Source: a virus
Taxonomy: Duplodnaviria > Caudoviricetes
DNA length: 64,000 nt
Virus record (IMG/VR): IMGVR_UViG_3300027819_000011
Location: 4,706 to 68,705 of that record
Reading direction: 5' to 3' (one strand)
Shown: piece after piece, positions 1 through 48,015 of the stretch
Numbering within the stretch: position 1 is the first letter of the stretch
Layout of the letters: every line of letters starts with the position of its first letter
Program-made: the position numbers and the translations under genes
Notes under the pieces: generated by a model
What the model was told of the DNA's origin: nothing
Databases searched by the model: none
Seen by the model: the letters and a program-made list of their open reading frames with translations, nothing else

Positions 1-957
1 AGCGTAGTTCTCGTAAGAATCACGCATGACCTCGACAAGGTGGTTGTAGTCTGGTTCCCCCCACTTCCCGGGAACATCCCAGTTTCCGAAAATCCCGTGG
101 GGCTTCCTTAATTCGGGGACCCGCACCAGAAGGGCATCACCAGCGTATTCTGTCGGACCCGACCAATTTGCCACAATGGTAGGCACTCCCACGGCCATTG
201 ATTCGATGATCGGGAGGCCCCACCCTTCGGCCCTGCTGCAAGAGACGAAGACATGGGCTGATTGTAGCCGCCTGATATATTGATCTCTCTCTTCAAAATG
301 GATAGGTATGATTCGTGAATCAGCGATCCCATTGGCTTGTAGCCTTTCTTCGGTTGATTTGTAGGTATCAGACGGAAAGAGCGTATCCGCCAACAGGTAG
401 AGACAAACATCTTCATATTTCGGGTGAAGAATATCCGCAGGATAAGAATCAATGTCAAAAGGAAAAGCTTTGAGGAAAGCTTGACAAATTTCCAACGTAG
501 ACTTCCGGGGTTGCCATTGGCCGACGTGGAGAAAGTTGAAATGAAATTCCTTCCTGGTTTCGTCTATGCCGCTGGCCTCTGGTTTAAATATTTCCGGGTC
601 AACGCCCTCATGAACTACCTTTATGAATTCTTCCGGTATGCCTTGGGCAATTCCGCAGGCACGCTCCCACTCCGTTGTTACCCACATTTGGTCGTAAAGA
701 CAAAGCTTGTCCAAAAACTCGACAGGGTATTCCGTTGATTCCCAGACCGTGTAAAGTATTGACGGATATGGCCTACTAACAGTCGTATGCGCTGCCGTCA
801 CGACATCAAGAAGGGAAATATTGACTTCCCCTTCCGCGTTACGGTTGACAGGCACAAGCTTTTCCAGTTCCTTGACAAAGCAAGTCGCGTGTTGCCCGTA
901 TCCAGTGCGTTCGTTAAATGCTGCGAAAAACCCTACGCTTTTATACATCTTACCCAT
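1..957 (-). CDS. GT-B/GT4-family glycosyltransferase (3' end runs off the window; absent from the ORF track)
   Basis: Hand translation from ATG 957 (GGAGG upstream) is open to position 1: MGKMYKSVGFFAAFNERTGYG...YTVWESTEYP...HEGVDPEIF...FLHVGQWQPRKS...FVSCSRAEGWGLPIIESMAVGVPTIV. This includes the GT4 EGxGLPxxE(A/S)M signature. Confidence 0.88.
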   Translation of the reverse strand, partial: MGKMYKSVGFFAAFNERTGYGQHATCFVKELEKLVPVNRNAEGEVNISLLDVVTAAHTTVSRPYPSILYTVWESTEYPVEFLDKLCLYDQMWVTTEWERACGIAQGIPEEFIKVVHEGVDPEIFKPEASGIDETRKEFHFNFLHVGQWQPRKSTLEICQAFLKAFPFDIDSYPADILHPKYEDVCLYLLADTLFPSDTYKSTEERLQANGIADSRIIPIHFEERDQYIRRLQSAHVFVSCSRAEGWGLPIIESMAVGVPTIVANWSGPTEYAGDALLVRVPELRKPHGIFGNWDVPGKWGEPDYNHLVEVMRDSYENYA

Positions 958-1048
958 TTCTCTATTCCCTCCATAGAACCCTCAAGATTAAAACCGGGGA
1001 GGAAGATGAGGGTTTCTTTTTTCGGGCCATTGGTTCCCTATCCCCGGT

Positions 1049-1588
1049 CTATGTATGAACTACCAACTGTGCTCCTGCCGCTAACGTAATGGTGCCCTGC
1101 AAATCCAGGGTGTCATGAACAACGTATTGCTGCCGGTCGCCTACGTTTATGGTCTCGCTGGCAAGTATCTGCCAGAACGGGTAGGCGGCAGAGGACGAAG
1201 AACCGCTACTACCGCTTGTTCCCGATGTGCCCGAGGCACCGGCTGCGCCTGAAACCCCAGAAGAACCGGACGACCCGGAAGAGCCAGAACTACCAGACGT
1301 TCCCGCCGATCCGGTAGAACCGCTCGATCCACTGCTTCCCGAAGTTCCTGAAGTGCCGCTCGATCCACTCGTGCCTGATGTTCCATGAGTTCCCGATGTC
1401 CCAGAAGTAGAGCTACTGCCGCTTGACCCAGAGGTTGAACTTGAACCGCTGCTTCCAGATGTTCCGCTGGAGCCAGGCGTTCCCGTAGTCCCGGATGTTC
1501 CCGCAGAACCGGTAGAACCAGACGTACCCGCAACGGCTCGCGGCCTTGGCGTGATAAGCTCAACTACTTTTCGCGGGGGCCATGCCAT
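1049..1588 (-). CDS. Gly/Ser/Thr low-complexity protein, probably virion-associated
   Basis: About 110 aa of SGTSGSSG-type repeats between short unique termini; lies in the structural operon directly upstream of the GT4 gene. Confidence 0.75.
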   Translation of the reverse strand: MAWPPRKVVELITPRPRAVAGTSGSTGSAGTSGTTGTPGSSGTSGSSGSSSTSGSSGSSSTSGTSGTHGTSGTSGSSGTSGTSGSSGSSGSTGSAGTSGSSGSSGSSGSSGVSGAAGASGTSGTSGSSGSSSSAAYPFWQILASETINVGDRQQYVVHDTLDLQGTITLAAGAQLVVHT

Positions 1589-1597
1589 TCAGACCAC

Positions 1598-1981
1598 CTA
1601 TCTTACGTTCAGTTCCGCAGTAATCCGCGAAGTCCCGCTTGTGCCTATAACGGCAAGAATCTTCATAAATGGAGCAGTAACGGGCGTGAACGAAAGCGCA
1701 CCTTGAGAGCCGTCTGCACCAGAACCGGCAGTTCCGATTGTGCCCTTGTCGCCATTTGTCGGAGCGCGGTAATTGCCAGACGACTTGTCGGAAACCACAT
1801 ATTTGAAATTCGTAGTCGCTGCTGTCCCGGCAAGCCCTGACGCCCCGACTTCATAGGTAAGGGTAAATTCTCCTTTCCGGTTCGCTTCCCTGAGATCAAT
1901 TTGATCTGAGGTATAGGTGCCCCCGGTGCCGGCGGTATCTTTCCATAACGGAATCGTTGTCACATAATTCCTGTAAGCCAT
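1598..1981 (-). CDS. Hypothetical structural-operon protein with GTAG/GTSG motifs
   Basis: 127-aa ORF, GGAGG RBS, co-oriented with the capsid operon. Confidence 0.7.
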   Translation of the reverse strand: MAYRNYVTTIPLWKDTAGTGGTYTSDQIDLREANRKGEFTLTYEVGASGLAGTAATTNFKYVVSDKSSGNYRAPTNGDKGTIGTAGSGADGSQGALSFTPVTAPFMKILAVIGTSGTSRITAELNVR

Positions 1982-2002
1982 AATGCTTTCCTCCCGTTAC
2001 GG

Positions 2003-2224
2003 TTAGAGCCCTGTTGCAAATATCGCGTTTGTGCCCGCCAAAGCTGCCGTGCCCGAACTGGCATAATGCGCGACACTGGTAGTGCCGGCCCGACCTGCCG
2101 ATGTTGCCTTTGAAGCGGTCCCGGAGTTCCCGGCGGTTGTCGCAACTTTGTCCATGTCGCCAACTACAAGAGAGGTGTTATTTTCAAGGTCTTCAATGAG
2201 TTGTTTTATTCTTAAAATCGCCAT
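2003..2224 (-). CDS. Small hypothetical structural-operon protein (A/G/T/S-rich C-terminus)
   Basis: ATG at 2224 preceded by GAAGGAGG; C-terminus TTAGNSGTASKATSAGRAGTT. Confidence 0.65.
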   Translation of the reverse strand: MAILRIKQLIEDLENNTSLVVGDMDKVATTAGNSGTASKATSAGRAGTTSVAHYASSGTAALAGTNAIFATGL

Positions 2225-2281
2225 GTTTTGTTCCTCCTTCAGAGGGGTAAGTGAACTGCTCAACTGGGTTGAAAGTTAAAA

Positions 2282-3052
2282 TCAGCTTCCGAATTCACGA
2301 GGCCGGAAGCGTTGCCGTGTTGCTAAGGTTTTTCTCATTCTTTCCGTGTAGGCATCGGGCAAAGGCCCGAATTGCTGCGTAAACCGCTTCTCAAACACCG
2401 CTGCGAGATTCAGGTTAAGCGTTTTGTCGTTAGGCTTCAGGTAGGCAAGGTGAGCGGCCCAATTTATCAAGCCTTCGTGATACTTCTCCTCGATTTCCGG
2501 CTGGGTTGTGGCCACAAAGGAAATAAGCGGGATGCGGGACACTACCAAGTAGGCGGTAGTCGCAACGGATGGGGCCTGCACAAAAGTTATGGTGTTGGGC
2601 GGCTCGTTAATGAAGAACGTCGGCACCCCGCCCGAACCTGCCGTCCCCACCGTTCCCGAAGTCCCCCACCATCCCGACATCAAGTCATCGAGCTCAGCAT
2701 ACGACACCGGGCCGTTTATCGGGTAGGTCATTGACTTGAACTGCACCCGCTTGACCTGGAGGATCTTGGGAGACAGGAGATAAGTTGCCTTGTCTGCCGT
2801 AATAGGAAGTACACAGAGTTGTCTTTCCCCCTGCGTCCCTGATGTACCCGCCGTCCCTGCACTCGTGGCCGTGCCGGATGTGCCGTAGTCAACAGGGGTA
2901 GTCCAGTCAATAAGAAGGTGTGCCCTGCGGCATGCCTGCACTTCTGCGTAATTCAGGAACCGCATCAGTTCGGCGTCAAGCCACTTGTAGGGCACTTCCA
3001 CATCGTCAAGAACATCATTCCTGAGATAGGCAAGCATATCGGAGCCGAGCAT
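2282..3052 (-). CDS. Head-tail adaptor / tail tubular protein A-like (DUF6682-type)
   Basis: N-terminal 'LRNDVLDD...YKWLDAELMRFLNYAEVQACRR' and C-terminal 'PEIEEKYHEGLINWAAHLAYLK' pattern typical of podovirus adaptors; downstream of the capsid genes. Confidence 0.7.
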   Translation of the reverse strand: MLGSDMLAYLRNDVLDDVEVPYKWLDAELMRFLNYAEVQACRRAHLLIDWTTPVDYGTSGTATSAGTAGTSGTQGERQLCVLPITADKATYLLSPKILQVKRVQFKSMTYPINGPVSYAELDDLMSGWWGTSGTVGTAGSGGVPTFFINEPPNTITFVQAPSVATTAYLVVSRIPLISFVATTQPEIEEKYHEGLINWAAHLAYLKPNDKTLNLNLAAVFEKRFTQQFGPLPDAYTERMRKTLATRQRFRPREFGS

Positions 3053-3063
3053 TTAAGACCTCC

Positions 3064-3456
3064 TTACGGAAAATCCACCCTGGAGTTGACGGAACCCTGC
3101 GCCAATGCGATAGCTTCCGGGGAAGGCATAGAGGCACCTCCTTCTGTCTCGTCTTTGCCGCTGTCCACATCTTCTTGGATCAAAATGTAGTTGATCCGAT
3201 GAATGTCTTTCGTGTAGACCTTGCCATCCTGCCCGGTAATGCTCTCCGTCCTGATTCGGGTGTCAAGCATCTTGCGAACCGGCCGGGGGAGGTCAATCTC
3301 CACACCGGGCTTAGCAAGAAAGGCATAGCCGTTCAGTGAAAAGAACAAGCCCTCCTTGGGAATCTCGCTTGACTCCTGAATGATGATCCTGTCCCTGACA
3401 TGCCCCCTTGGGCTGGTGAAAAACTCTTCGCCTTTGTTCTTCTTCTGGAATGTCAT
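3064..3456 (-). CDS. Conserved hypothetical phage structural-region protein
   Basis: 130-aa ORF with RBS; 'FSLNGYAFLAKPGVEIDLPRPV' resembles proteins that follow N4-type capsid genes. Confidence 0.6.
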   Translation of the reverse strand: MTFQKKNKGEEFFTSPRGHVRDRIIIQESSEIPKEGLFFSLNGYAFLAKPGVEIDLPRPVRKMLDTRIRTESITGQDGKVYTKDIHRINYILIQEDVDSGKDETEGGASMPSPEAIALAQGSVNSRVDFP

Positions 3457-3482
3457 AATTTCCCCTCAAGTTTTATGGGGTA

Positions 3483-3513
3483 GCGGGAAGGAGGCAATGC
3501 ACCTCCTTCCCGC
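3483..3513 (-). terminator. Perfect 12-bp hairpin after the capsid/decoration genes (no U-tract)
   Basis: GCGGGAAGGAGG-caatgca-CCTCCTTCCCGC in the intergenic gap; could be a weak terminator or an mRNA stabiliser. Confidence 0.55.
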
Positions 3514-3521
3514 ACCCAAGT

Positions 3522-4091
3522 TTACTCGCTAAACGGCATATGAAGCAGGTTCTTCATCACCGAAACCGTTCCGCATGTCGCATTGGTGTTCCCGGACAAC
3601 ACGTTGTTCCCGCCAGCCGTACCGCCGCCGAAACGGATGTACTTGCCGGAAGTCGTGTTGTACTCGCAGTACCCTACCGCAACCATCCCATCGGGGCAGT
3701 TGGGAAGCTTGGCCGCCGTTGAAGATGCGCCTTCATTGCCCGCGACGCAAGTTGCCCCGGTCCCGAATTTAGCCGCCACGAGGTATTTTACCCAGGTGTT
3801 AGACGACTGTGTACCTGCGGGAAGGAAGATGTTGTCCTGTGCCGCCATGGTGCCCATCTGGCCGTTAATTGCAAGCGTCACGTCAAAGGCCAGTTTCAGC
3901 CCCGCAGTTCCGCCGGTCCCGATTCCGGCGTTAAAGCTCGTGCCGCCGGTAGTTCCCGAAGTGCCCGCAATTACGCGGTTGGTTATGGACTGAATCGCTC
4001 TCCTGATGGACTCCATCGGGAAGGCGTTGTAAACTTTGTCCGGTGCATCTTCTACGGATACAACCGGGTCATCAAATTTCTTGTAAGCCAT
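3522..4091 (-). CDS. Putative capsid decoration/cement protein
   Basis: 189-aa G/T/A-rich protein immediately after the major capsid gene; the call rests on position. Confidence 0.55.
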   Translation of the reverse strand: MAYKKFDDPVVSVEDAPDKVYNAFPMESIRRAIQSITNRVIAGTSGTTGGTSFNAGIGTGGTAGLKLAFDVTLAINGQMGTMAAQDNIFLPAGTQSSNTWVKYLVAAKFGTGATCVAGNEGASSTAAKLPNCPDGMVAVGYCEYNTTSGKYIRFGGGTAGGNNVLSGNTNATCGTVSVMKNLLHMPFSE

Positions 4092-5172: not shown

Positions 5173-6204
5173 TTATTTTCCTCCTGATCTATTAACAGCC
5201 TCTTCAAACGCGCCTTCAAAGTCGTCTGCCACCTGATAGCCGGTAGCGACTGCGCCTCGCCTCGTTGTTACGGTGCTGAGGGCGGCCTTCTTTTCGGCCT
5301 TTTTAGGTGTCATGGTGACGACATTCGACTGCGTTTCCGTTTGCGGGCTGGTTAGGGGTATGTTGTTTTCGCGTTTGTAGTCATTCAGCAAATCTATGAC
5401 TTCATCCGCACTTCCTTTCTGGATGGTATTCAGCAATGCTGGCTGGAGATATTTCGGCTTTGACTCTACCCAGGTCATGAGATCGACATGACCCTCTCCA
5501 CCGTCCGCATAGGTTCGATAGTCAGAATGAGCAGCCTCAATGGCTTCCCAATGAAGGGCTAAATCATCTGCTTCAAGCTTTTTTGTAACGGGGTTAAGTT
5601 CGCCACGGATCGTTGAAATCTCGGCTTTCATTTCAGTCCTGATTTCATCCTTGATCTGGTCAAGTCTTTTCGATAACCGTCCTAACTCAGCTTTTCTCTT
5701 GATACCTTCCGCTTTTGATACAACGTCAAAGGCGTCCTCGTACTGCGCCAAAACTTCCTTGTCCTCTGGGCTAAGGGAGTCGTAGGCATCGGCTGCCTCT
5801 TTGTCTGTAAGTTTCCCTGGTGATGGTTCTGTCTTGGGTTCTGTCTTGGGCTTTTTGGCCTCCTCTACTTGCGACAATAGTTCGCGTTCGCGGGCGTCCC
5901 AGGTTTCCTTGTCTTTCCGGTGAATGCCCTGGAGGGTCTTGTATCGCTGTTCGTATTTCTCCTCTGTCTCGCCCGGCTGTTTTTCTATCGCAGCGGTGGC
6001 AACGGGCTCTTCTTTTGCTTCTGCCGCTTTTGCGGGTTGCGTTTCCGCCTTCACGACCGGGGCTGATTCCTCTGCCGGAATCTTTATTTCTGCATTTATC
6101 CCGGAAACTTCAGCGGCCTCGTTAAACGCTCCCTCGAATTCGTCGTCAAGCGCTTCTCCCGCCGTTCCCAATGTTCCCTCATCATCGGTTTTCGCTGCTG
6201 TCAT
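5173..6204 (-). CDS. Capsid scaffolding protein
   Basis: Acidic, helical/coiled-coil 343-aa protein between portal and capsid genes; strong GGAGG RBS. Confidence 0.8.
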   Translation of the reverse strand: MTAAKTDDEGTLGTAGEALDDEFEGAFNEAAEVSGINAEIKIPAEESAPVVKAETQPAKAAEAKEEPVATAAIEKQPGETEEKYEQRYKTLQGIHRKDKETWDARERELLSQVEEAKKPKTEPKTEPSPGKLTDKEAADAYDSLSPEDKEVLAQYEDAFDVVSKAEGIKRKAELGRLSKRLDQIKDEIRTEMKAEISTIRGELNPVTKKLEADDLALHWEAIEAAHSDYRTYADGGEGHVDLMTWVESKPKYLQPALLNTIQKGSADEVIDLLNDYKRENNIPLTSPQTETQSNVVTMTPKKAEKKAALSTVTTRRGAVATGYQVADDFEGAFEEAVNRSGGK

Positions 6205-11731: not shown

Positions 11732-12415
11732 CTATTCCGCCATATTGCAAAACTCGACGCTTGTAAGTTTCGTCTGCCTTGACAACCAATTCCGCAGGCC
11801 GTCTGGCCGTCTGGCCTGGTACTCAAGCCGGTGGTTAAGGTGAATCTCAATCCCCATGTAGTCCACACGGGGCAAAACCGTGCAGGGGTACAGGACTTCA
11901 TATTCCATGCCCTCCACATCCATCTTGAGAAACCGGCACCTGTCTATCCCGTAAAGGTCAAATATTTCGTCAAGCCGCTTGACCGATATGGGCTGACGGT
12001 AATGGTGATCCGGGTTGAATTCGCATAGAGACGTTGAGCCTCCGGAGTGGTCTTTCGATACATTCACAGTAGCCGTCATCTCCCCCGGCTTGCCAACTCC
12101 GATATTGTAGCACGATATGTTTTCGCAGGCGTTCAGGCCGACGTTGTGCATGAGCTGCGTAAAAGTGCGCGGCACCGGCTCCAGGGCGATAACTCTGGCC
12201 TGCGGAAACAGCTTGGCCATCAAGATGCTGAACATGCCCTCGTTGGCGCCGATATCCAGGATAACGTCGCCTTTGCGAAACTCGATATTTTCCTTCAGCA
12301 CGCAGTAGTTGTCCCCGAACACCTCTTTAATTAAGTCCTGCGCGTCGATGCTGGGGTGAAAATAAAAGTCGTGGTCCCTGAACCGGTGAACAATGATGTC
12401 CTCAACCTCTCCCAT
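11732..12415 (-). CDS. FkbM-family SAM-dependent methyltransferase
   Basis: 'VILDIGANEGMFS', 'VIALEPVP', 'FLKMDVEGMEYEVL' FkbM motifs. Confidence 0.9.
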   Translation of the reverse strand: MGEVEDIIVHRFRDHDFYFHPSIDAQDLIKEVFGDNYCVLKENIEFRKGDVILDIGANEGMFSILMAKLFPQARVIALEPVPRTFTQLMHNVGLNACENISCYNIGVGKPGEMTATVNVSKDHSGGSTSLCEFNPDHHYRQPISVKRLDEIFDLYGIDRCRFLKMDVEGMEYEVLYPCTVLPRVDYMGIEIHLNHRLEYQARRPDGLRNWLSRQTKLTSVEFCNMAE

Positions 12416-37474: not shown

Positions 37475-39436
37475 CTATCCTCTGTCTACCCACATTTTAA
37501 TATAGTCGGGAACTACAAATCTTTGGATTGCCCCACCCGCCAAATTCTGAACCATGAAGTAAGGTGCCAAGGCAATTCCTGCCTGTACCGTCCCGGTGAT
37601 ATTACCTGCCGCTACTTCTGTATCGTTAATCCAAACACGAGGTTGCTCTGTATCAGTCAAGTCAATCTTAATTTTGATAAAAGTATCACTGACAATTACC
37701 ACCCCCATATCATCATAATCAACTGCCGCCCCGTTATCCACAGAAGCAGCCACTATCTGTGTAGCTCCGAAAGTGTGACCATTATCCGAGTTAATTCCTA
37801 CAAGAAAAGCATCGTTTGGAAACGCACCATTCACGTCGGCAAAGGCGGCAGAAGCAAAGCCTACATAGAACCCTGTCGTTTCCTTAGTATCTATTTTGAT
37901 TCGGGCTTCAAGGATGGGATTCTGTGTGACATTAACATTTGTCAGACCTAATATCGTTACGCTGTCATTATCAGCATTGGCGCACATCGCCTTTACTGTT
38001 CCGCCAGTTCCGCCTAAATAGGTAACATTGCCGGCGGCATAATTTGTACCTGCTGTAGTCCAGAAGTCGGCATTAAGTGAAGATTCAAGTTGTACCCCAG
38101 CAGCTTCATCATCGAAATCATCGCACCAATAATAAACCCTGGAATTGATCGCTCCGTTGACATCATGAGTATAGATTGGCGCTATCGTCCAGATGCCGAC
38201 GTTGCCGTTCGATTTTATCGTTACCCTGTCATTCATTCCACCACTAGTTAGTCTGGTTCTGAAAACCAATGACCCATCATAATTACCGCTAGTAGCATTT
38301 TCCCTTACCGTTCCAATCTCTCCCATAATCGTATAATCAGTTGCGGTATATTTAGCACCAAATCCAATTGCCCCACCAATGCCACTTGCCAAAGCACCCG
38401 TGTTATACGACATCATATTCGCGCAAATGTTGCTTCCTTCTGCCAATCCAGCACCAGCAACATGCAACTTTACCTCAGGTTCCGTCCCGATGCCGACGTT
38501 GCCATCAACGGTGCGATGAAAGAGAATGGAGCCGTCAGAGGTGAGGATAACGGTTGTGCTGCCGTTAGCGGCGGTGAACTCAATAACCGTACCGCTCGAA
38601 CCGGAAACCCGTTGAGGACTTTGGATGCTGGTAATGGCTGAAGAAGCTGCCCATGTCGTAGTCTGGTCAAGGGTGACTTGGAGGCTACCGAGGAGCTTGG
38701 TTACGTAGCGGGTTTGAGCGTTAGAGATGATGGTGGAGCCGATGCGACACAGGTTATAATCGGCGGCTTGGGTAAACGTCGCTGTTAGAGATGCAGCGGA
38801 TATTGTACCAGAAAACGAACTGACAGCAGCCGGGGGCGCAGGATTTGTACCGAGCAAGATTGGCAGGCTCGTGCAGTTCTGTAGATCGCCTGAGCTGGGG
38901 GTGCCGAGGGCACCGTTACTGCCGACCGTGCCGCAAACAGAAGCAGTGGTTGCAAAGGCCGCTGTTCCTGCCTGGCCGGATGTGGTTGCGTAAGATGAAG
39001 TTCCAGATTGTCCAGCGGTAGTTGCCGATGATGCTGATCCTGAATTTCCGGCAGAAGATGCATATGAAGAACTCCCGGCATTCGCCGCCGTAGTGGCCGA
39101 CCCCGCCGATCCCGATTCTCCCGCCGATGTAGCCTTAACCGATGTCCCTGATTGCCCTGATGATGTGGCGTAATAAGCTGTCCCGGCATTTCCAGAAGAA
39201 CTTGCAAAGGCCGCACTGCCCGCATTAGCTGCCGTTGTAGATGAACCGGAACTTCCAGAATTCCCCGATGAAGTCGCATAAAATGCAGTTCCCGAAGTCC
39301 CAAGGCCGCGTTCAATGCCATCAGTGCCTTTTGCGTAAACCTCATGGTCTGTTTTGGCATAGACTACGATATTCCCGGTAGAGGGCGTGGCGGGTGCGGT
39401 TCCTTCTGTCAGTGATATTTTGGCGGCATCGGGCAT
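37475..39436 (-). CDS. Tail fibre / receptor-binding protein
   Basis: N-terminal A/S/G/T repeats (ATSSGNSG, TTAGQSG), 'GNVGIGT' and 'GNVGIWT' fibre repeats, C-terminal beta-sandwich; start ATG 39436 with GGAGG. Confidence 0.75.
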   Translation of the reverse strand: MPDAAKISLTEGTAPATPSTGNIVVYAKTDHEVYAKGTDGIERGLGTSGTAFYATSSGNSGSSGSSTTAANAGSAAFASSSGNAGTAYYATSSGQSGTSVKATSAGESGSAGSATTAANAGSSSYASSAGNSGSASSATTAGQSGTSSYATTSGQAGTAAFATTASVCGTVGSNGALGTPSSGDLQNCTSLPILLGTNPAPPAAVSSFSGTISAASLTATFTQAADYNLCRIGSTIISNAQTRYVTKLLGSLQVTLDQTTTWAASSAITSIQSPQRVSGSSGTVIEFTAANGSTTVILTSDGSILFHRTVDGNVGIGTEPEVKLHVAGAGLAEGSNICANMMSYNTGALASGIGGAIGFGAKYTATDYTIMGEIGTVRENATSGNYDGSLVFRTRLTSGGMNDRVTIKSNGNVGIWTIAPIYTHDVNGAINSRVYYWCDDFDDEAAGVQLESSLNADFWTTAGTNYAAGNVTYLGGTGGTVKAMCANADNDSVTILGLTNVNVTQNPILEARIKIDTKETTGFYVGFASAAFADVNGAFPNDAFLVGINSDNGHTFGATQIVAASVDNGAAVDYDDMGVVIVSDTFIKIKIDLTDTEQPRVWINDTEVAAGNITGTVQAGIALAPYFMVQNLAGGAIQRFVVPDYIKMWVDRG

Positions 39437-39455
39437 AATTCCCTCCTGAAATGAC

Positions 39456-39529
39456 AATAAAAAAGGCAACCAAGGAAATTAATCCGAGGTTGCCTTTGGC
39501 TCGTATAAAAACTGAGTTTAGACCACTAT
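39456..39529 (-). promoter_or_regulatory. Conserved late leader/attenuator element, copy B
   Basis: Minus strand ATAGTGGTCTAAACTCA...GAGCCAAAGGCAACC-N-ATTAATT-N-GGTTGCCTTTTTTATT. Confidence 0.75.
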
Positions 39530-39666: not shown

Positions 39667-39801
39667 ATGGATTTACTTGTCAAGAAATTTCCTGATGATG
39701 TAGTTTTTAAGTTAAAAATCAAGGCGTTAAGGATGAGAACAAGCCTTCGGGATTTAATCATCAAGCTGCTTTCCAAGGAGGCTGATAAGGATGACAGCTA
39801 A
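39667..39801 (+). CDS. Ribbon-helix-helix (Arc/FitA-like) DNA-binding protein, 44 aa (not in track)
   Basis: MDLLVKKFPDDVVFKLKIKALRMRTSLRDLIIKLLSKEADKDDS; GGAG RBS; overlaps the start of the next gene. Confidence 0.65.
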   Translation: MDLLVKKFPDDVVFKLKIKALRMRTSLRDLIIKLLSKEADKDDS

Positions 39802-40753
39802 AATCTCCCCCCGAATCACCCTTGAGAATCGGACGCCACTACAGGATGTTATTCCGCTTTCTACGCCTTATCTGGTGTTCCTCGACCCGTCAGATATCTG
39901 TAACGCTCATTGCCAGTGGTGTCCAACCGGAAGCGGAGAAATCAAGAAATATCGCAAACAACAGCTTATGGACTTCGATCTTTACCGGAAGATTATTGAT
40001 GATCTTGCGGCCATGCCGGAGCAGATAAAAACCTTAAGGCTCTACTGCTGGGGCGAACCGCTCATGAACCTCCGATTCCCCGAGATGGTGCGATACGCCA
40101 AGAATACAGGGAGGTTTGGGCAGGTGGATACGACAAGCAACGGCATGCTGCTTAACCCAAGGTTGTCGCAAGAAATAATAACGGCTGGCTTGGACAAAAT
40201 ATTTATCAGCGTGCCGACTGAATACACACGGGAGTATCTTGGGGAAATTGCTTATTTCCACGGATTTGCTTACGGGGCAGGAACGTGCAACGTCCATGTC
40301 AAGATCATAGGAGACAACCTTTCCGAGACCCAAAAACAGCGATTTTATGAAGACTTTGAGGACTTTTCCGATTCCATAAACATCGAATATCTTTCCCCCT
40401 GTTGGCCCGGCTATGAATCTGGGAAGGTAGGTGAAAAAGGGATTTATGGGCAGGAATTGCCGGCCAAGGTGCCTAATACCTGCCCGTACATATTCTACTC
40501 CATGGCCATCAATTCCGATGGGAAAGTTAGCCTGTGTTTTCTGGATTGGAAGAAAGAAATGGTAATGGGTGATCTCAAGAGGGAAAGCTTTAAAGATATT
40601 TGGAACGGGTGGTGGGTTAAAAATATCCGAAGATTTCAGCTATCAGGGCTTAGGGCGTGCCTGTGTCCCTGCAAAGATTGCCAACAGCTCCGCTACGGTA
40701 TGGCAGATAACATCGACGACTACGCGGAAGAAATATTGAAGAGGCTGGAATAA
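39791..40753 (+). CDS. Radical SAM protein with SPASM/twitch domain
   Basis: 'DPSDICNAHCQWCP', 'WGEPLMN', 'TTSNGMLL', SPASM 'TCPYIFYSMAINSDGKVSLCFLDW...GDL...CPCKDC'. Confidence 0.9.
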   Translation: MTAKISPRITLENRTPLQDVIPLSTPYLVFLDPSDICNAHCQWCPTGSGEIKKYRKQQLMDFDLYRKIIDDLAAMPEQIKTLRLYCWGEPLMNLRFPEMVRYAKNTGRFGQVDTTSNGMLLNPRLSQEIITAGLDKIFISVPTEYTREYLGEIAYFHGFAYGAGTCNVHVKIIGDNLSETQKQRFYEDFEDFSDSINIEYLSPCWPGYESGKVGEKGIYGQELPAKVPNTCPYIFYSMAINSDGKVSLCFLDWKKEMVMGDLKRESFKDIWNGWWVKNIRRFQLSGLRACLCPCKDCQQLRYGMADNIDDYAEEILKRLE

Positions 40754-40968
40754 TGCGGACGGGTTACGGTTGTTCGGGGACACACGACACGACCTATCGG
40801 GCGGTAATCTGGCATGATGGAACATGGAACACGGACGAACTCCGGCGGCTCGCCGCCGGTGAACTATTGGACCGCAACTGCAAGCGTTACGGCATGTGCG
40901 CTGGGTGTCGCACGGTCATCCGCCTCGACAAACCATTTTTCGGTTCACTGCATTCGTGCGATGAATAG
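40753..40968 (+). CDS. Small Cys-containing protein (possible SPASM remnant)
   Basis: 71 aa, 'GMCAGC'; start overlaps the upstream stop. Confidence 0.4.
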   Translation: MRTGYGCSGTHDTTYRAVIWHDGTWNTDELRRLAAGELLDRNCKRYGMCAGCRTVIRLDKPFFGSLHSCDE

Positions 40969-40989
40969 ACTGAGCGATTAGGGAAAATT

Positions 40990-41991
40990 ATGACCGAACC
41001 CATAACCCCATCCCGCCCCATAGTCCTCTACGGCAAAGGCCCTCTGGGAATGCTGACCAAGGAGATATTTGATAAGCATATGATTCCCGTAGCTGCCCAC
41101 ATAGACCGTAACGATTTTACCCGTGGGACGCCGAGCAAGGCCGAAAAAGAGTTAAAGAAAGAGGCGGTCGTGATTGTCTGCATAGCAAGCGAACCGTACA
41201 ATCCCATACGGCTAATGTTGCGTTCAAAAGGATGGGGGGCTGAAGGCAAGATAAGGCGCATTTATGATGTCTTCGAGCAACACCCTGAACTTGGCATAAC
41301 ATCGGGATGGAAGATAGGGAAATTAAGCCACGAAGACAGGAGCGGGATAGCAAGGATGCTGCCCAAGTTTGCCGACAACACTTCTAATCGCCACTGGGTT
41401 CATTTTACGACATGGCATAGGGGCAGGGGAGATATGGCACTAAACAACATGGAGCACAGAGAATGCCTACCCTCAACGCTTGCCGATATAGAGGCGAGGC
41501 GGCATGTCTTTCTTTGCAAAGACGAGCCTATGGGCAGCGTAAGCATTCATGCCGAGGGCTATGAACTTGACACGATTCTTGTCAACATGCCCCTTTTCCA
41601 AAAGCATAGGCCGAAGATAGATGCAGCCTGCTATCATACGAGAGATGGACTGTGGAAGATCGAGAAGGCTTTAATGGATGGCCTGCCCAACTACAGGTGG
41701 ACGTTCAGGGTGCATGCGTACCAGGGGCAGGGGGCCTATGTCTACGGAGTGCCGACCGAGAAAATAGAAATGGCCGAAACTTTACATGCCAGTTTTAAAA
41801 GTCCTGATTTTCATGGGATTACTTTGTGCCATAGGGACAAGAAATGGCGGGCAGATGTTTATGTTGATAGGAAAAAATATTATGGTGGTATCCACAAGAC
41901 CCCTGAACTGGCTGCACGGGCGTATGATGGGCTTGCGGTAAAGCTTCTTGGGGACAAGGCGTGGCTTAATTTTCCGAAGGAGGACAAGTGA
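40990..41991 (+). CDS. Degenerate FkbM-like protein fused to a C-terminal AP2 DNA-binding domain
   Basis: Rossmann-like start 'IVLYGKG'; FkbM tail 'IHAEGYELDTIL...HRPKIDAACYH...LWKI...YRWTFRVH' but no DIGA motif; AP2 'FHGITLCHRDKKWRADV...YGGIHKTPELAARAYD...LLGDKAWLNFP'. Confidence 0.7.
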   Translation: MTEPITPSRPIVLYGKGPLGMLTKEIFDKHMIPVAAHIDRNDFTRGTPSKAEKELKKEAVVIVCIASEPYNPIRLMLRSKGWGAEGKIRRIYDVFEQHPELGITSGWKIGKLSHEDRSGIARMLPKFADNTSNRHWVHFTTWHRGRGDMALNNMEHRECLPSTLADIEARRHVFLCKDEPMGSVSIHAEGYELDTILVNMPLFQKHRPKIDAACYHTRDGLWKIEKALMDGLPNYRWTFRVHAYQGQGAYVYGVPTEKIEMAETLHASFKSPDFHGITLCHRDKKWRADVYVDRKKYYGGIHKTPELAARAYDGLAVKLLGDKAWLNFPKEDK

Positions 41992-42956
41992 ATATTCTTT
42001 CTGTGGTGCCGCATTTAGGAGGGGGATTAGGAAAAGTAGTTCTCGCTCTTGCTGAAAGGTGCCCCGGCAAACATACCATTGCTTTACTGGAAACACCGCA
42101 GCGATCATTTCTAAAGCCTGCCACTGTGGATATATGGGCAGGTAAGTACGTGAAAGCGTTGATGGAAGATGCCGATATTGTCTTGATCCATTATTACGAC
42201 CACCCTGCCATCGCTAAACTGCTTTCCGAAGCACTCCCGCCGTGTCGCTTGGTTTTTTGGACGCACAAGCATTATTCGATTCCTCAGCGAGAGAAAGAAT
42301 ATCCCGATAAATTTTTCTATACATCACCCGTGCAAGGAACTGATTACCCGTATATTTGGTCATGTTATGACATGTCGCGCTTCTTTGAGATCAAGCCGAA
42401 GGTGCACGACGGTTTTAACGTGGGGTATGTGGGGACGGTTTCGTATAAGAAGATTCATCCTGAATGGCTGCCAATGTGCAGGGAAATCAGGAAAGCTATC
42501 CCGGAAGCAAGGTTCACCTTTGTAGGAGAAAACCTGACTGCCGTACAGGACGCGCCGGGCATAACCTTCACCGGTCACGTTGACGATGTTGCACCATACC
42601 TTGCGGAGATGGACATATTTTTCTATCCCTTGAGGCCGGACCATTACGGAACTGCGGAGCAGGTATTGGGGGAGAGTATGGCTGCGGGGGTACCGCCCGT
42701 GGTTATGAATAACCAAGCAGAATGCACCATTTTAGGCGATGAAGAAATTATGAACGGGTTTGTGGCCAGTAGTGAAGAAGATTGCGTAAACTGCGTTACC
42801 TATTTGTACAATGATCCAGTATATAGAGGAAGCGTTAGTCGCCATACCCGCGAACGTGCCCGCGAACTCTACAACATCGACGCCATGATAAGTCAGTGGA
42901 ATATAGTTTTTCAAGAGCTGATGAAGCAACCGAAGAAGGAGAGGGTAGGAATATGA
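41988..42956 (+). CDS. GT4-family glycosyltransferase
   Basis: 'HLGGGLG', 'FNVGYVGT', 'FTGHVDDVAPYLAEMDIFFYP', 'EQVLGESMAAGVPPV'. Confidence 0.88.
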   Translation: MNILSVVPHLGGGLGKVVLALAERCPGKHTIALLETPQRSFLKPATVDIWAGKYVKALMEDADIVLIHYYDHPAIAKLLSEALPPCRLVFWTHKHYSIPQREKEYPDKFFYTSPVQGTDYPYIWSCYDMSRFFEIKPKVHDGFNVGYVGTVSYKKIHPEWLPMCREIRKAIPEARFTFVGENLTAVQDAPGITFTGHVDDVAPYLAEMDIFFYPLRPDHYGTAEQVLGESMAAGVPPVVMNNQAECTILGDEEIMNGFVASSEEDCVNCVTYLYNDPVYRGSVSRHTRERARELYNIDAMISQWNIVFQELMKQPKKERVGI

Positions 42957-43061
42957 ATGATTACGAGATAGGCGCAGCCGCTGTTATTCTATCATTTATC
43001 GCTTTAGCCGTGGTTTTGCATTTTATGGGAGTGCCTTGGTAATGGGAGAAAGGAAGGAGAT

Positions 43062-43271
43062 ATGAGAAAATACCGCATCAAGGAAATAACAAGCAGTCAT
43101 ACCGGGAAACGTATATTCATCCCGCAACATAGTTTTTTGTTTTTCTTCTGGCTGCCCTGGGAAAGAACAGAATGGAGCGATTGGGATTTTCCGACCTTGG
43201 CGGAAGCCGAAGATTTCATAAGGGAAGTACAACAGCCAACGGTTCCCCCGAGAATATATGAGGCGAAATGA
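43062..43271 (+). CDS. Small hypothetical phage protein
   Basis: 'MRKYRIKE...FIPQ...WLPW' common phage motif; AAGGAG RBS. Confidence 0.6.
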   Translation: MRKYRIKEITSSHTGKRIFIPQHSFLFFFWLPWERTEWSDWDFPTLAEAEDFIREVQQPTVPPRIYEAK

Positions 43272-43459
43272 ATTTTAGAGACACGCCCGAATATCAAAAG
43301 CTCTTTCAATATGCCATGCTTTACGGTAAGGCGGCCTGCGGGATTAAAGAGCGAAAATGGTATAATCCGTTGCGGTGGGTAAAGGGGAAATATTACGAAA
43401 AGGTTATTTCGCCGCTTGAGTTTTACAAGAAAGGGGGAAGGCCCTTCCGTGGCAACTAA
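43268..43459 (+). CDS. Small hypothetical protein
   Basis: 4-nt overlap with the upstream gene. Confidence 0.5.
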   Translation: MNFRDTPEYQKLFQYAMLYGKAACGIKERKWYNPLRWVKGKYYEKVISPLEFYKKGGRPFRGN

Positions 43460-43700
43460 AGACATAACCGATAAGCAGGTGTGCGAGGCTTATGCCGAAG
43501 CCGCGAGACAACGTGGGCTTGATTGGATATATCACCGTTATGAATGGCCTTATGAAATTCTGGAAAGAGCAACAGGGCAACCAGAAAAGGTTTGCTACCG
43601 GGCGATGGAAAGAGCGGAGAGCAGGGGATACATAGAGTATGGTGTTTCATTGCGGACAGGGTGGCTCACGGAAAAAGGGAAGGAATTAATGAATGGATAG
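43449..43700 (+). CDS. Conserved winged-helix-like phage protein
   Basis: 'ATKDITDKQVCEAY...PEKVCYRAMERA...GYIEYGVSLRTGWLTEKG' recurrent motif; GTG start. Confidence 0.65.
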   Translation: MATKDITDKQVCEAYAEAARQRGLDWIYHRYEWPYEILERATGQPEKVCYRAMERAESRGYIEYGVSLRTGWLTEKGKELMNG

Positions 43701-45180
43701 GCCCAATGTCCTCCTGATAGCCCTACCCTACGTAGTGCGCCATATCGACTCGACACGGCCCAAGATAAGGAGCTTTCTCGCTACACCGTATGGCTTGCTT
43801 TCTATCGCTACGTATTGCCGTGATTTGGCAAATATCCAGATAATTGACTGCGACACCCTGCCGGATCACCGGAAGGCTATCCAGGAAGCTCTTGAGAATT
43901 TCCGGCCCGATATTGTCGGCTTTTCGATGAACTACGACAACTCCTATCCGCACCTTGAAGAACTGGCCGGGATGGTTAAAGACTATGATCCCAATATTTT
44001 GGTAGTCCTGGGCGGATCTGCGGCGAGCTATTCATATGAGGAAATTATTCATGAGCAGGAAGATGTGGATGCTATCTGCTTTGGCGAGGGGGAATTACCG
44101 TTTGCCGAGTTATTAAAGGGATATAGCACCGGGCACGCACGCTGGATTAATAATTTGCGAACGGTAGGCTCGGCATGGGTTCTTCGGGATACGATAAGTG
44201 GATCCCCTCCGCTTCCTTCTTATATCCAAGACCTCGACCAAGTTATTGACACAGACTATTCCTTTGTTGACCCGAAAGCATACGAGATGCAAGAGGCTTT
44301 TTCCCCGTATGCCCGGTCTAACCGGAAGAGCTTTTTTCTCATGACTTCGCGCGGGTGTCCCTTTGGCTGCCGATTCTGTTCCAACTCGGCACTCCATGGA
44401 AAGAAGGTCCGGCAGGCAAGCGTCGGGAGCATCGTTGCCCACGTCCGGCGCCTTGTTGAAGAATACGGCATGGAGACCCTTATTATCTACGATGACTGTT
44501 TGCTCTACCATAAGACGCGGGCAAAGGAGATATTTAGGCGGTTGGCACAATTCAGCATCCGAATCGAGATGCCAAACGGCGTGAATGTCGCCTTTGTGGA
44601 TGAAGAGATAGCCGAGCTTATGGCGAAGGCGGGGGTAGATACCGTCTACCTCGCTATCGAATCGGGGAGCGAATACGTGTTGAAAGAATTGATCCATAAG
44701 CCGCTCAAGCTTCGTATGGTTAAGCCAGCGGTGGAGGCACTACAGAAGCACGGCCTTTTCTGCCATGCCTTTATAGTCTTGGGCATGCCCGGCGAGACCG
44801 ATGAGCACCGCAGAGAGACAGAACGTTTCCTTTTGGATGTAGGCGTAAACTGGGCCGGGATAAATCTCGCCACTCCCGTGAGAGGAAGCCAACTCTATGC
44901 CGATTGCATCAAGAACGGTTGGATACAGAAACAGAAGATAAGCGACATTGTGGACAAGAAGTATGTCATCAATTATCCCGGCCAAGACCCAGGCGAAGTC
45001 GAGCGGCAAGCTTACGAGATGAACTTGAATATAAATTTCCACCATAACCAGGATATGAGAAACGGAAATTATGAACGGGCCGCTGCATGCTTTCGGCAAG
45101 TCATGCAGAGGTATGGCGGCCATGAACTTGCTAAGAAGTATTTGGCGATTTGCGAAGGGAAGACGAGGGATAATGGATAG
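43693..45180 (+). CDS. B12-binding radical SAM protein (class B methyltransferase-like)
   Basis: 'PYGLLSIA', 'PDIVGFS', 'VVLGGSAA', 'GEGE', 'TSRGCPFGCRFC', 'YDDCL', 'AIESGS', 'IVLGMPGET'. Confidence 0.92.
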   Translation: MDRPNVLLIALPYVVRHIDSTRPKIRSFLATPYGLLSIATYCRDLANIQIIDCDTLPDHRKAIQEALENFRPDIVGFSMNYDNSYPHLEELAGMVKDYDPNILVVLGGSAASYSYEEIIHEQEDVDAICFGEGELPFAELLKGYSTGHARWINNLRTVGSAWVLRDTISGSPPLPSYIQDLDQVIDTDYSFVDPKAYEMQEAFSPYARSNRKSFFLMTSRGCPFGCRFCSNSALHGKKVRQASVGSIVAHVRRLVEEYGMETLIIYDDCLLYHKTRAKEIFRRLAQFSIRIEMPNGVNVAFVDEEIAELMAKAGVDTVYLAIESGSEYVLKELIHKPLKLRMVKPAVEALQKHGLFCHAFIVLGMPGETDEHRRETERFLLDVGVNWAGINLATPVRGSQLYADCIKNGWIQKQKISDIVDKKYVINYPGQDPGEVERQAYEMNLNINFHHNQDMRNGNYERAAACFRQVMQRYGGHELAKKYLAICEGKTRDNG

Positions 45181-45529
45181 GTCAGGATTTCGGTCTTCTT
45201 TTAAAGACAAGAAAGGGAGGTTTATTCGGGAAGGCGATATTCTTATAAAGCGATTCGATACGGTAAAACACGACAACCCATATGGGAAGAAAGTCGCATA
45301 TGACGGCATGGGGAACGAGCGCATAGTCCCTGACCAAGGGAAAGAATGGAAAGAATCGGCATGGATCAAATACCAAATAAAATGGATAGGTGATTGTTTG
45401 ATAGCCGAGAAAATAGCTGATTCAGGGAATTTAGATTACCCGCCAAGCGCTTTTGAATATTTAAACAACGCCTTTCGTGGCAGAGAATACGAGATTTGCG
45501 AAGAGCATGAAATACAACATAAAGACTAA
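45173..45529 (+). CDS. YopX-like protein
   Basis: 'FKDKKGRFIREGDIL' motif; ATG 45173 overlaps the upstream stop. Confidence 0.55.
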   Translation: MDRSGFRSSFKDKKGRFIREGDILIKRFDTVKHDNPYGKKVAYDGMGNERIVPDQGKEWKESAWIKYQIKWIGDCLIAEKIADSGNLDYPPSAFEYLNNAFRGREYEICEEHEIQHKD

Positions 45530-45779
45530 TATTTTTCAAGATGGCAAACGAAGGGAGGATGAGGGGATGAAAATAATAACTGTGTTATACCCGATATGGA
45601 TTGGGATTGCCGTAAATATCGTAATGTCACTTATAAATCTTTCCTTAATCGGGCATTATGGGTCTATTGCATCGGCTTACATGAAGCACAGTGGGAAAAT
45701 CTTATTCCTTTTATGGACAATTTTGTTATCATTGACTGCCTATAATGGCGGCGTCAGTTATCTATTTTAAGGAGCAAAC

Positions 45780-46538
45780 ATGAATCCGACTGAAGAATAC
45801 ATAGCCGCCCGAGACAAACAAGTGCGGCAGAACATAGCTGAATTGAATAACCCGAACTATGGGTATGATGACCGGCAAACAAATGCTGGCAGAATTGCGG
45901 ATTTTACAGAGTATCTTGTTAAGACGAACTACACGAAGAATTTCACGTGGGCGGGCATACCAATAATCCAATATGCAACTGACCTTATGGTTATGCAGGA
46001 AATAATTTGGCAGGTGAGGCCCGAATGGATAATCGAATGCGGCTTGGCCTTCGGCGGCATGACAGCTTTTTACGCCACCATGCTTGATTTTATGGGCCAT
46101 GGATATGTCCTGGGGATTGATATAGACATAAGAGAGCATACCAGAAAAGCGTTGCTTCATCCCCGAATTGCCCTTAAACAATCTTCAAGCATTGACGAGG
46201 GATTAATAAAAACCGTGCGTGAATTAGTTCAGGGGACTACGGTTCTCGTCGCGCTCGATTCCTGTCATTCACACATCCACGTCCTGAAAGAGCTTGAACT
46301 TTACGCCCCGCTGGTATCGGTGGGGAGCTACATCGTTGTCTTTGACACCGCTATTGAGTTTTATCATCACTTGGATAAAGCACAAGACCGGCCATGGGGC
46401 AACGGTAACAGCCCCTATACGGCAGTTCAAGCCTTCCTCAAAACCGAGATGGGGCAGAACTTTGTTGTCGATAGGGAAGTTGAGATGAGGGCGCTTATTA
46501 CGGCGGCGCCAGGAGGTTTCCTTCAGAGGATTAAATGA
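45780..46538 (+). CDS. CmcI / cephalosporin-hydroxylase-family sugar O-methyltransferase
   Basis: 'FTWAGIPIIQYATDL...QEIIWQVRPEWIIECGLAFGG', 'VLGIDID', 'LDSCHSHIHVLKELELYAPLVSVGSYIVVFDT', 'PGGFLQRIK'. Confidence 0.92.
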   Translation: MNPTEEYIAARDKQVRQNIAELNNPNYGYDDRQTNAGRIADFTEYLVKTNYTKNFTWAGIPIIQYATDLMVMQEIIWQVRPEWIIECGLAFGGMTAFYATMLDFMGHGYVLGIDIDIREHTRKALLHPRIALKQSSSIDEGLIKTVRELVQGTTVLVALDSCHSHIHVLKELELYAPLVSVGSYIVVFDTAIEFYHHLDKAQDRPWGNGNSPYTAVQAFLKTEMGQNFVVDREVEMRALITAAPGGFLQRIK

Positions 46539-46673
46539 TGTTCAGAAAAATAGATGCTTTCATGAAGCAACATGGATTTCTCGAAGGATGGCATGAGCCT
46601 TTGATTCAGGTGTTAATTGCTTTTTTAGTAGCGTTATCTGTTATCATTTCAAGGTAAGGAAGGAGGATAAAAT

Positions 46674-47450: not shown

Positions 47451-47680
47451 AATACAGCGTTGAGGAAATTGATGAGATGCGGGAGTCCGTAGCTTCAATG
47501 TTGCAGAGAAAAAGAATTCCTTATTCCAATATCGAAGAAAGATTACGAACCTACATGCTTAACGGAACCACGCCCGACGAATTATTGGTTGCTGCTTCTC
47601 CTAAAGAAACACAGGAATACTTAAAAAGTCATCCAGAAGAAATAGCAAATTTTATTCAAATGCAGAGAAAGGTGTGGTAG
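47447..47680 (+). CDS. Hypothetical protein
   Basis: ATGA overlap with the rfbF stop. Confidence 0.5.
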   Translation: MKYSVEEIDEMRESVASMLQRKRIPYSNIEERLRTYMLNGTTPDELLVAASPKETQEYLKSHPEEIANFIQMQRKVW

Positions 47681-47682
47681 GA

Positions 47683-48015
47683 ATGAAAACCTTTGTTGCT
47701 GATCATGGTTGGATGTGCCGGATAGAAAGAGCGAAAGCGGGAATGAAGAAACGATACCTAATTTTTTGCTGTACCCCTTACTGTCTTCACCGAGAAATGA
47801 GAGCTTTCTTGAACAACCATGAAAAAGTTACAATACGCCATGCAGGTCGGATAATAATTGATGGAAATTCGGAACATTGGTTTATTCAAGACGGGAACAA
47901 AAATAAAGAAAAGTTCTATGGAATGCTGCTAACCGATTATAGAACGTGCGGAAACTATACGCTTGACGATACGCTTGCTTCTATCTTGGAAAGCCATAAA
48001 GGAAGGATGGAATGA
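47683..48015 (+). CDS. Hypothetical protein
   Basis: Fills the gap before rfbG; its stop overlaps the rfbG start. Confidence 0.5.
   Translation: MKTFVADHGWMCRIERAKAGMKKRYLIFCCTPYCLHREMRAFLNNHEKVTIRHAGRIIIDGNSEHWFIQDGNKNKEKFYGMLLTDYRTCGNYTLDDTLASILESHKGRME

Follow-up and report, generated by a model that had tools for sequence, protein, structure and literature searches.

Why would a phage keep a glycosyltransferase gene within its structural module, beside the gene of a Gly-Ser/Thr repeat protein, when the same short Gly-Thr pattern recurs in unrelated proteins of its virion? This question is raised by the IMG/VR record IMGVR_UViG_3300027819_000011 (68,705 bp), of which bases 4706-68705, a stretch of 64,000 nucleotides (nt) called the window hereafter, were analysed; positions are those of the window unless the genome is named. 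An initial annotation of this DNA had taken the recurring G-T/S-x-G-T/S loops as a modification tag shared across the virion surface, and the gene at 1-957 as its GT4 transferase. As argued below, the best explanation from the sequences would be that an enzyme with three transferase domains glycosylates virion proteins at (G-T/S-x)n tracts, a reading to which a probability of roughly 0.55 is given.

The genes on which this reading depends are as follows (lengths in amino acids, aa; the second motif count is the one expected from shuffled sequences).

1-957 (genome 2774-5662), minus strand: three-domain glycosyltransferase, 962 aa, of which the window holds the first 319 codons (Pfam, TIGR04414, TibC alignment, AlphaFold2)
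1049-1588, minus strand: proline-poor collagen-like protein, 179 aa (Pfam Collagen, E 5e-16; 28 motifs vs 1.4)
1598-1981, minus strand: virion-module protein, 127 aa (4 motifs vs 0.11; loops at aa 18-24, 80-88 and 113-118)
2003-2263, minus strand: small T/S/G/A-rich protein, 86 aa (no strict motif)
2282-3052, minus strand: SU10-type head-tail adaptor, 256 aa (PF24175, E 1e-16; 6 motifs vs 0.03)
3522-4091, minus strand: 189-aa protein directly after the capsid gene (2 motifs vs 0.09, p = 0.004; loops at aa 42-51 and 57-64)
5173-6204, minus strand: scaffold (1 motif, weak)
37475-39469, minus strand: fibre-like protein, 664 aa (6 motifs vs 0.54)
59406-62129, minus strand: tail protein, nozzle-like by position, 907 aa (5 motifs vs 0.22)
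62140-63384, minus strand: adaptor paralogue (1 motif, weak)

Occurrence and Enrichment of the Motif

Open reading frames (ORFs) were called on the circularised genome (n = 107), and the motif counted was G[TS]xG[TS]. It occurs 53 times and is confined to eight ORFs, every one of them in structural modules, as the 99 other ORFs, with the portal, TerL, capsid protein, replication and sugar genes among them, hold none. The loops quoted in the initial annotation were all recovered in their genes, and the rarity that it had noticed in portal, TerL, replication and sugar enzymes turned out to be a complete absence. For the 86-aa protein, which it had counted among the motif carriers, the similar composition stood and the strict motif was missing. 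Likewise, the motifs are present in the proteins that it had named decoration protein, tail fibre and nozzle, but these names are guesses from position, with no Pfam or PHROG match.

Each protein was shuffled 5000 times, and the genome-wide sum was compared with 1000 shuffles. Outside the repeat protein, the 106 remaining proteins hold 25 motifs compared to 2.5 expected (standard deviation 1.6; shuffle maximum 10), which bears out the supposed enrichment over shuffled controls, and the stricter GT.GT is found 18 times in the same set, with 0.73 expected. GTSGT as an exact pentapeptide is present six times, while control patterns, having the same residues at other spacing or other residue classes, reach counts of only 0-9. 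The shuffle p was at most 0.004 for every motif protein except the two with single matches, the scaffold and the adaptor paralogue at 62140-63384. Gly and Thr codons vary between loop copies, therefore the constraint acts on the protein, and a DNA-level repeat as the origin of the loops was ruled out for the same reason.

The adaptor matches PF24175 with 62 bits (cutoff 27), its residues 4-235 covering model positions 4-182 and having about 50 inserted residues relative to the model; loop 1 lies at aa 57-75 (nt 2828-2884) and loop 2 at aa 130-143 (nt 2624-2665). The phage possesses four proteins of the adaptor fold: this one, those at 62140-63384 and from 63387 onward, and a 495-aa protein outside the window (genome 891-2378, minus strand), in which a SPRY and a further domain are fused to the SU10-type adaptor domain. 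As had been noticed for two of them, the adaptor loops have no counterpart in the paralogues, and all three lack both. In the case of the 127-aa protein, the homologues in relatives keep G-T-x-G-T loops.

The Collagen-Like Repeat Protein and the Nature of the Loops

The protein at 1049-1588 had been described by its SGTSGSSG repeats, which are confirmed, while its kind has to be corrected to a collagen-like (Gly-X-Y)n protein. About 37 Gly-X-Y triplets, nearly all GSS or GTS and with a few Gly-to-Ser interruptions, are followed by a C-terminal domain of about 45 aa. The match to PF01391 reaches 58.6 bits (cutoff 27.2), and PHROG tail-fibre and collagen-like families are matched as well. The protein has 3.4% Pro, without the Pro-rich or charge-rich X/Y positions that stabilise a triple helix.

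For the composition of the loops, 98 sites were studied, drawn from seven relatives besides this phage. Gly stands at every third residue, a periodicity that reaches one triplet further on either side of the motif, and the position behind it is taken by Thr in 87 sites for the first Gly and in 81 for the second; the third position of the triplet is most often Ala or Ser (25 sites each). Judged by sequence, the loops are thus runs of two to five collagen-type triplets with Thr at X, being of the same kind as the repeat protein. The latter would most likely be the main acceptor. No terminator-like site is found between the repeat gene and the transferase gene, which fits their co-transcription, as first supposed, without being proof of it.

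The Three-Domain Transferase

A GT4 domain is indeed encoded at 1-957, as annotated, but this is only the first third of a 962-aa protein of three transferase domains, cut by the edge of the window. Its GT4 domain extends over aa ~1-345, followed by a putative glycogenin-like GT-A domain (aa ~370-580) and a domain of the bacterial autotransporter heptosyltransferases (BAHT; aa 627-943). The first matches PF00534 and PF20706, with the GT-B C-terminal match at aa 207-274 (43.2 bits, cutoff 26.4). The middle domain has no sequence-family match in the Pfam search. However, the AlphaFold2 (AF2) model of aa 340-640, built with a 40-sequence alignment, has a predicted local distance difference test score (pLDDT) of 91, and Foldseek relates it to glycogenin, Kre2p/Mnt1p, GlcNAc-T I and others (E ~1e-5, probability 1.00), with TM-scores of only 0.34-0.41. 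D487 and E489 are invariant in that alignment and D491 is nearly so; these residues may form a metal-binding motif.

Regarding the C-terminal domain, aa 627-942 match positions 41-373 of the 374 of TIGR04414 (E 2.4e-48, 165 bits), a model defined as the Aah/TibC 'autotransporter strand-loop-strand O-heptosyltransferase', and aa 640-943 align to TibC (PDB 4RAP) with E 2e-31. Taking the roles of the TibC residues from the TibC paper (PMC4358343), the catalytic base Asp-110 corresponds to D683, the β-phosphate ligands Thr-226 and Lys-230 to T798 and K802, and Trp-305 to W867. The four-Cys iron finger of TibC (Cys-339, 342, 358 and 370) corresponds to C900, C904, C919 and C927, with a CX3C spacing instead of CX2C. 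D683, T798, K802, W867, C900, C919 and C927 are kept in at least 90% of 109 homologues, and all nine residues, C904 included, are invariant in the 40-sequence alignment; the counterparts of D683, T798, K802 and W867 are also present in three unrelated phage versions. Meanwhile, Pro-300 of TibC is replaced by Asn-862, and Arg-286, which reads the adenine N1 and explains the ADP specificity of TibC (PMC4358343), is replaced by Thr-848, a Thr conserved in at least 90% of the family, although the alignment of this loop is uncertain among the distant phage versions. From these residues, the BAHT part looks catalytically intact, with a nucleotide pocket unlike that of TibC. The fused three-domain protein is widespread, with at least 390 clusters in metagenomes, many of them on contigs of 65-76 kb.

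Distribution among Relatives

About 120 loci were collected through searches with the adaptor, the transferase and the capsid alignment, and the capsid protein has 377 relatives in IMG/VR. A loop-bearing clade, defined by a capsid identity of at least 62%, has a conserved gene order. At least one motif is present in 44 of its 46 distinct full-length adaptor homologues and in 55 of the 57 distinct homologues of the 189-aa post-capsid protein, with a mean of three, and the core W-G-T-[SA]-G-T of adaptor loop 2 is kept across relatives having 53-64% overall identity. In many members, large repeat proteins are encoded after the small virion proteins; they measure 270-970 aa and have up to 158 motifs. 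In L008 and L030 loops are present with no obvious repeat protein in the region covered. The transferase is found in every contig of sufficient reach, namely in all nine long records of the clade (this phage, G002-G005 and G012-G015), located after the repeat gene in most relatives and between TerL and the portal in L062, L063 and L076. The L063 transferase matches in separate pieces and may be divided between two genes. The length of adaptor loop 2 is variable, and L009 (4874-5998) and L060 (5222-6343) carry there an inserted domain of about 120 aa, therefore the site tolerates whole-domain insertions.

In the sister lineages, with a capsid identity of 47-55%, neither repeat protein nor transferase is seen at the locus, and there are 0-0.8 motifs per 1000 aa. 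Similarly, none of seven whole records outside the clade has the transferase, three of them being rated 100% complete by CheckV; one of these three, G006, is a more distant relative, reached only via a 30% adaptor match. Five whole genomes were compared with that of this phage (G000), motif densities being calculated per 1000 aa with repeat proteins excluded.

G000 (this phage): transferase present, 1.22 motifs, the sugar cluster itself
G003: transferase present, 0.77 motifs, several homologues of the sugar cluster
G013: transferase present, 0.94 motifs, several homologues of the sugar cluster
G007: transferase absent, 0.11 motifs, no homologues of the sugar cluster
G008: transferase absent, 0.16 motifs, no homologues of the sugar cluster
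G006: transferase absent, 0.05 motifs, no homologues of the sugar cluster

In the cultured Acidovorax phage AP1 and Pseudomonas phage 8P, the adaptor is 27-28% identical to that of this phage and lacks both loops, and there are two and zero motifs, respectively, in about 8000 structural residues; both are absent among the phage records matching the transferase, and the repeat protein and the sugar genes are lacking in them as well. The loops and the glycosyltransferase and sugar genes, which had been expected to occur together, thus do so in one clade, along with the repeat protein, and its sister lineages are without any of them.

In the capsid tree, the enzyme-bearing phages fall in two groups, forming an unresolved trichotomy with the loop-less L089 above the outgroup. 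The adaptor of L089 has no loops, a single motif is present among 3280 aa, and there is no transferase within the 21 kb of this contig, a fragment whose limits leave the TerL-portal region outside; searches with its adaptor and capsid protein as queries found no longer relative. A second, divergent subclade, which bears the enzyme (L017 and L085, adaptor 31% identical), lacks the loops of the main clade and has G-T-rich loops at two other positions. At all these loop sites, L089, AP1, 8P and the three adaptor paralogues of the phage have short plain turns. The different positions in L017 and L085 imply that loops were gained more than once, at insertion-tolerant sites.

Enzyme and Repeat Protein in Unrelated Phages

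A (G-T/S-S)n protein paired with a GT4...BAHT gene is also found in two phages unrelated to this family, Mel-JY01 and the 735-kb phage LR756501. The T4-like Microcystis phage Mel-JY01 (PP395634, L011) encodes a (GTS/GSS)n protein of about 470 residues (plus strand, ~770-2160), located 2.6 kb upstream of the gene of a 1226-aa GT4-BAHT protein (TIGR04414, 317 bits). In the PP395634 record, the opposite strand is annotated there (739-2298) as a Pro/Val/Glu-rich 'hypothetical protein'. In LR756501, a 699-aa repeat protein is encoded divergently next to two transferase genes, one of them with a TIGR04414 score of 305 bits. Meanwhile, LR756504 carries a stand-alone BAHT gene (224 bits) with no repeat-protein neighbour within 20 kb. 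These three versions all pass the TIGR04414 cutoff of 200 bits.

Sugar Nucleotide Genes

Two further features of the window may be related to glycosylation.

39791-52545, plus strand: cluster of sugar-nucleotide and tailoring genes (Pfam)
11732-12415, minus strand: FkbM-family methyltransferase, upstream of TerL (PF05050, E 3.5e-19)

The cluster possesses sugar-nucleotide genes (a nucleotidyltransferase, an NDP-hexose 4,6-dehydratase and a sugar C-methyltransferase), besides a CmcI-type O-methyltransferase, a radical SAM/SPASM enzyme and two B12 radical SAM enzymes, and a second GT4 is encoded within it (41988-42956). The cluster would likely supply the donor sugar or sugars. The FkbM gene is co-distributed with the transferase-bearing clade, and it may be linked to the glycosylation system. 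A further FkbM link, through a Mel-JY01 protein labelled 'methyltransferase FkbM', was dropped, as Pfam finds no FkbM domain in that protein, which is the GT4...TibC-like fusion.

Proposed Mechanism and Alternatives

In the proposed mechanism, the 962-aa enzyme, expressed late, would act through its three joined transferase domains. The C-terminal TibC/Aah-like domain would most likely add the first sugar to Ser/Thr of the (Gly-Thr/Ser-x)n tracts on folded or assembling virion proteins, whereas the glycan would be extended by the other two domains, GT-A and GT4, and by the further GT4 of the sugar cluster, with donors that may include a methylated deoxysugar from the 13-kb pathway of the phage itself. 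The main acceptor would be the collagen-like (G-S/T-S)n protein encoded next door, while the short tracts (two to five triplets, core G-T-x-G-T) would act as portable acceptor tags in loops of the adaptor, the post-capsid protein, the small virion proteins, the fibre and the tail protein, thus giving the same coat to unrelated surface proteins, with shielding, stability or adhesion as plausible roles. The analysis shows the enrichment and conservation of the motif, the identity of the domains and the co-distribution, while the modified residue, the priming domain, the sugars and the function of the coat are what we infer. Separately considered, the repeat protein has a good chance of being a substrate of the enzyme, and the short loops have an even chance of being additional ones. 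A broader proposal, which should be taken as tentative and falls somewhat short of even odds, would be that (Gly-Thr-x)2-5 is a glycosylation tag insertable in any exposed loop and read by a BAHT-like enzyme without ADP specificity, the fused transferases adding a methylated-deoxysugar glycan that coats capsid, neck, tail and fibres throughout a family of groundwater and freshwater podophages, with the same principle of enzyme and tract at work in cyanophages and megaphages.

Several observations weigh against glycosylation at the tracts. The TIGR04414 score of 165 bits is below the curated cutoff of 200, and the replacement of Arg-286 by Thr implies that the donor, and perhaps the acceptor rules, differ from those of TibC. 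The conserved residue in the loops is Thr, whereas TibC modifies Ser (PMC4358343), and Ala and Ser are equally frequent at the third position; the TibA contexts N-S-G-G and T-S-A-A are compatible with T-S-G in GTSGT, which is not evidence for it. In the AF2 model of the adaptor, built from an 8-sequence alignment, the pLDDT is 55 and both loops are low-confidence coil. At the family level, the co-distribution of loops, enzyme and sugar genes represents a single gain, or else a gain plus a loss, which kinship alone could produce. Finally, no loop enrichment is seen in the other proteins of the 28 kb examined from Mel-JY01, therefore the enzyme can exist with the fibre as its sole partner. As to the modification tag of the initial annotation, the idea came through the comparison of relatives and gained from the BAHT domain, but its plain GT4 was wrong and the co-distribution corresponds to about one gain.

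The cases of Mel-JY01 and LR756501, both with enzyme and repeat protein and no evident loop enrichment in neighbouring proteins, suit an enzyme acting on the long collagen-like protein only, the loops being structural, e.g., docking sites or short triple-helix or polyglycine-II-like anchors of the fibre; that the loops share the triplets of the fibre and are co-distributed with its gene is consistent with this too. It is nonetheless unlikely, as collagen peptides generally need more than two to five triplets to form a stable triple helix, and the loops occur in proteins of differing symmetry, such as an adaptor of a dodecameric family, small proteins and a tail protein. The loops of L008 and L030 are also at odds with it, and loop positions specific to a subclade suit a tag better than a fixed docking geometry. 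If the loops were ordinary flexible, insertion-tolerant, low-complexity linkers, sharing only ancestry with the enzyme, their length-variable sites, the low-confidence coil and the single event at the family level would be expected. Such linkers would hardly keep so strict a pattern, with a Gly in every triplet and a Thr behind it in 83-89% of sites, at 50-60% overall identity and with varied codons, while control patterns of like composition are rare. The G-T-rich loops that arose at new positions in the second subclade, and the plain short turns at the same sites in sister lineages and paralogues, also speak against linkers, which makes this a distinctly improbable account.

A target other than the virion, such as the host envelope or lipopolysaccharide, a host protein or the phage DNA, with the loops otherwise modified or unmodified, could be thought of, since lipids or polysaccharides are common substrates of GT4 and GT9-like enzymes, and the phage also encodes the FkbM methyltransferase and, within a 1527-aa protein, an ADP-ribosyltransferase domain. 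However, no activity other than protein O-glycosylation is known for BAHT enzymes (PMC4358343). The transferase gene, although variable in its exact place, is always inside the structural module and recurs beside repeat proteins in unrelated phages, so that there is very little chance of such a target. Glycosylation of the virion proteins at their (G-T/S-x)n tracts accounts best for these data as a whole.

Comparison with Known Systems

To our knowledge, a few actinobacteriophages are the only phages for which experiments have demonstrated glycosylated particles, and a literature search for TibC-type enzymes in phages found no description of them. We know of one bacterial family, BAHT, that O-glycosylates loops of folded proteins in the cytoplasm. 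The closest likeness is with the Escherichia coli pairs TibC-TibA and Aah-AIDA-I (PDB 4RAP/4RB4), as the phage enzyme shares a homologous C-terminal domain with the catalytic Asp, the ligands, the Trp and the four Cys, its gene adjoins a repetitive Ser/Thr/Gly-rich candidate substrate and many sites are expected. BAHT enzymes are dodecameric rings with a β-hairpin thumb, which use ADP-heptose to transfer heptose to Ser in the β-helix of an autotransporter. In contrast to TibC-TibA, the setting is a phage, in which there is no autotransporter, and the domain is fused to two more transferase domains; it bears Thr for Arg-286, Asn for Pro-300 and CX3C, and its score is below the cutoff. The candidate acceptors are also different, being triplets of the collagen type and short loops spread over unrelated proteins, and the residue conserved in them is Thr, not Ser. 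BAHT enzymes work in the cytoplasm, where they modify loops of already folded repeat proteins from neighbouring genes, and TibC glycosylates Ser in such loops of the adjacently encoded TibA, in the contexts N-S-G-G and T-S-A-A (PMC4358343).

In mycobacteriophages, as here, phage glycosyltransferases encoded among structural genes are thought or have been shown to decorate capsid and tail proteins, in other host groups. O-glycosylation of mycobacteriophage virions is reportedly the subject of Freeman et al. 2023 (Cell Host Microbe), and we know of no collagen-like sequon or BAHT domain reported for it. Virion glycosylation by mycobacteriophage enzymes is mentioned in two papers (PMC11256854, PMC12363180).

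Proteins of the BclA type on spores resemble the repeat protein in having collagen-like Gly-X-Thr repeats on a dormant particle, where Thr is O-glycosylated by dedicated transferases. Their glycans are partly methylated deoxysugars. Unlike the phage protein, they have Pro-rich GPT triplets and depend on other enzyme families, and they are cellular, not viral. Such Thr-glycosylated collagen-like surface proteins are found on Bacillus and Clostridioides spores, e.g., BclA3 with SgtA (PMC7157674).

Relative to these systems, the new element would be the short collagen-type G-T-x loops inserted repeatedly in globular virion proteins of a podophage family with genomes of ~69 kb. If the proposed glycosylation is true, a large uncultured family, plus cyanophages and megaphages, would use an adhesin-type protein glycosylase on their own virions, extending the BAHT family beyond autotransporters and revealing a simple transplantable sequon. 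It would also explain the proline-free Gly-Ser/Thr 'collagen-like' fibres of phages, allow site-directed O-glycosylation in bacteria through a tag and an enzyme that are both genetically encodable, and bear on how phages evade adsorption traps, immune recognition and degradation.

Genome Organization and Other Features

The final 126 nt of the record are a copy of its bases 7-132 (window 63875-64000 compared with genome 1-132), therefore the genome is closed, complete or circularly permuted, with about 68.6 kb. In IMG/VR, the same record is entered as linear and 70% complete. The DNA is also present in two groundwater metagenome runs, from which it may originate, and a look-up of sequencing runs listed no RNA run with it. 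The adaptor paralogue gene from 63387 onward spans the contig join.

The minus strand forms one long structural module, in the order TerL (with an intein), portal, scaffold, capsid protein, 189-aa protein, 130-aa protein, SU10-type adaptor, 86-aa protein, 127-aa protein, 179-aa repeat protein and transferase, followed by a small protein, the SPRY-adaptor fusion, two more adaptor paralogues, the 907-aa protein, two further proteins and the 1527-aa protein. The last (52595-57178, minus strand), which closes the module, bears its ADP-ribosyltransferase domain, of the ART-PolyVal type, at aa 269-403 (E 4e-10) and may be an internal protein that is ejected. A Cys-rich ORF of 257 aa with an HNH-like motif, located outside the window (genome 142-915, plus strand) and flanked by the SPRY-adaptor fusion and the adaptor paralogue next to it, is probably a free-standing homing endonuclease.

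A scan of genome contigs found only three of this family, L016, L017 and L018, one of which has 68 kb; they are binned in metagenome-assembled genomes named Nitrosotalea, Deltaproteobacteria and Dehalococcoidia, which is almost certainly an artefact and uninformative on the host. In many relatives (L009, at 1026-1969, L016, L084, L087, L088, L090-L095 and L097), about 0.95 kb of DNA with an ORF of about 300 aa is inserted in the capsid gene behind codon 35, possibly as an intron or intein bearing a homing endonuclease; the capsid gene of the window itself is uninterrupted.

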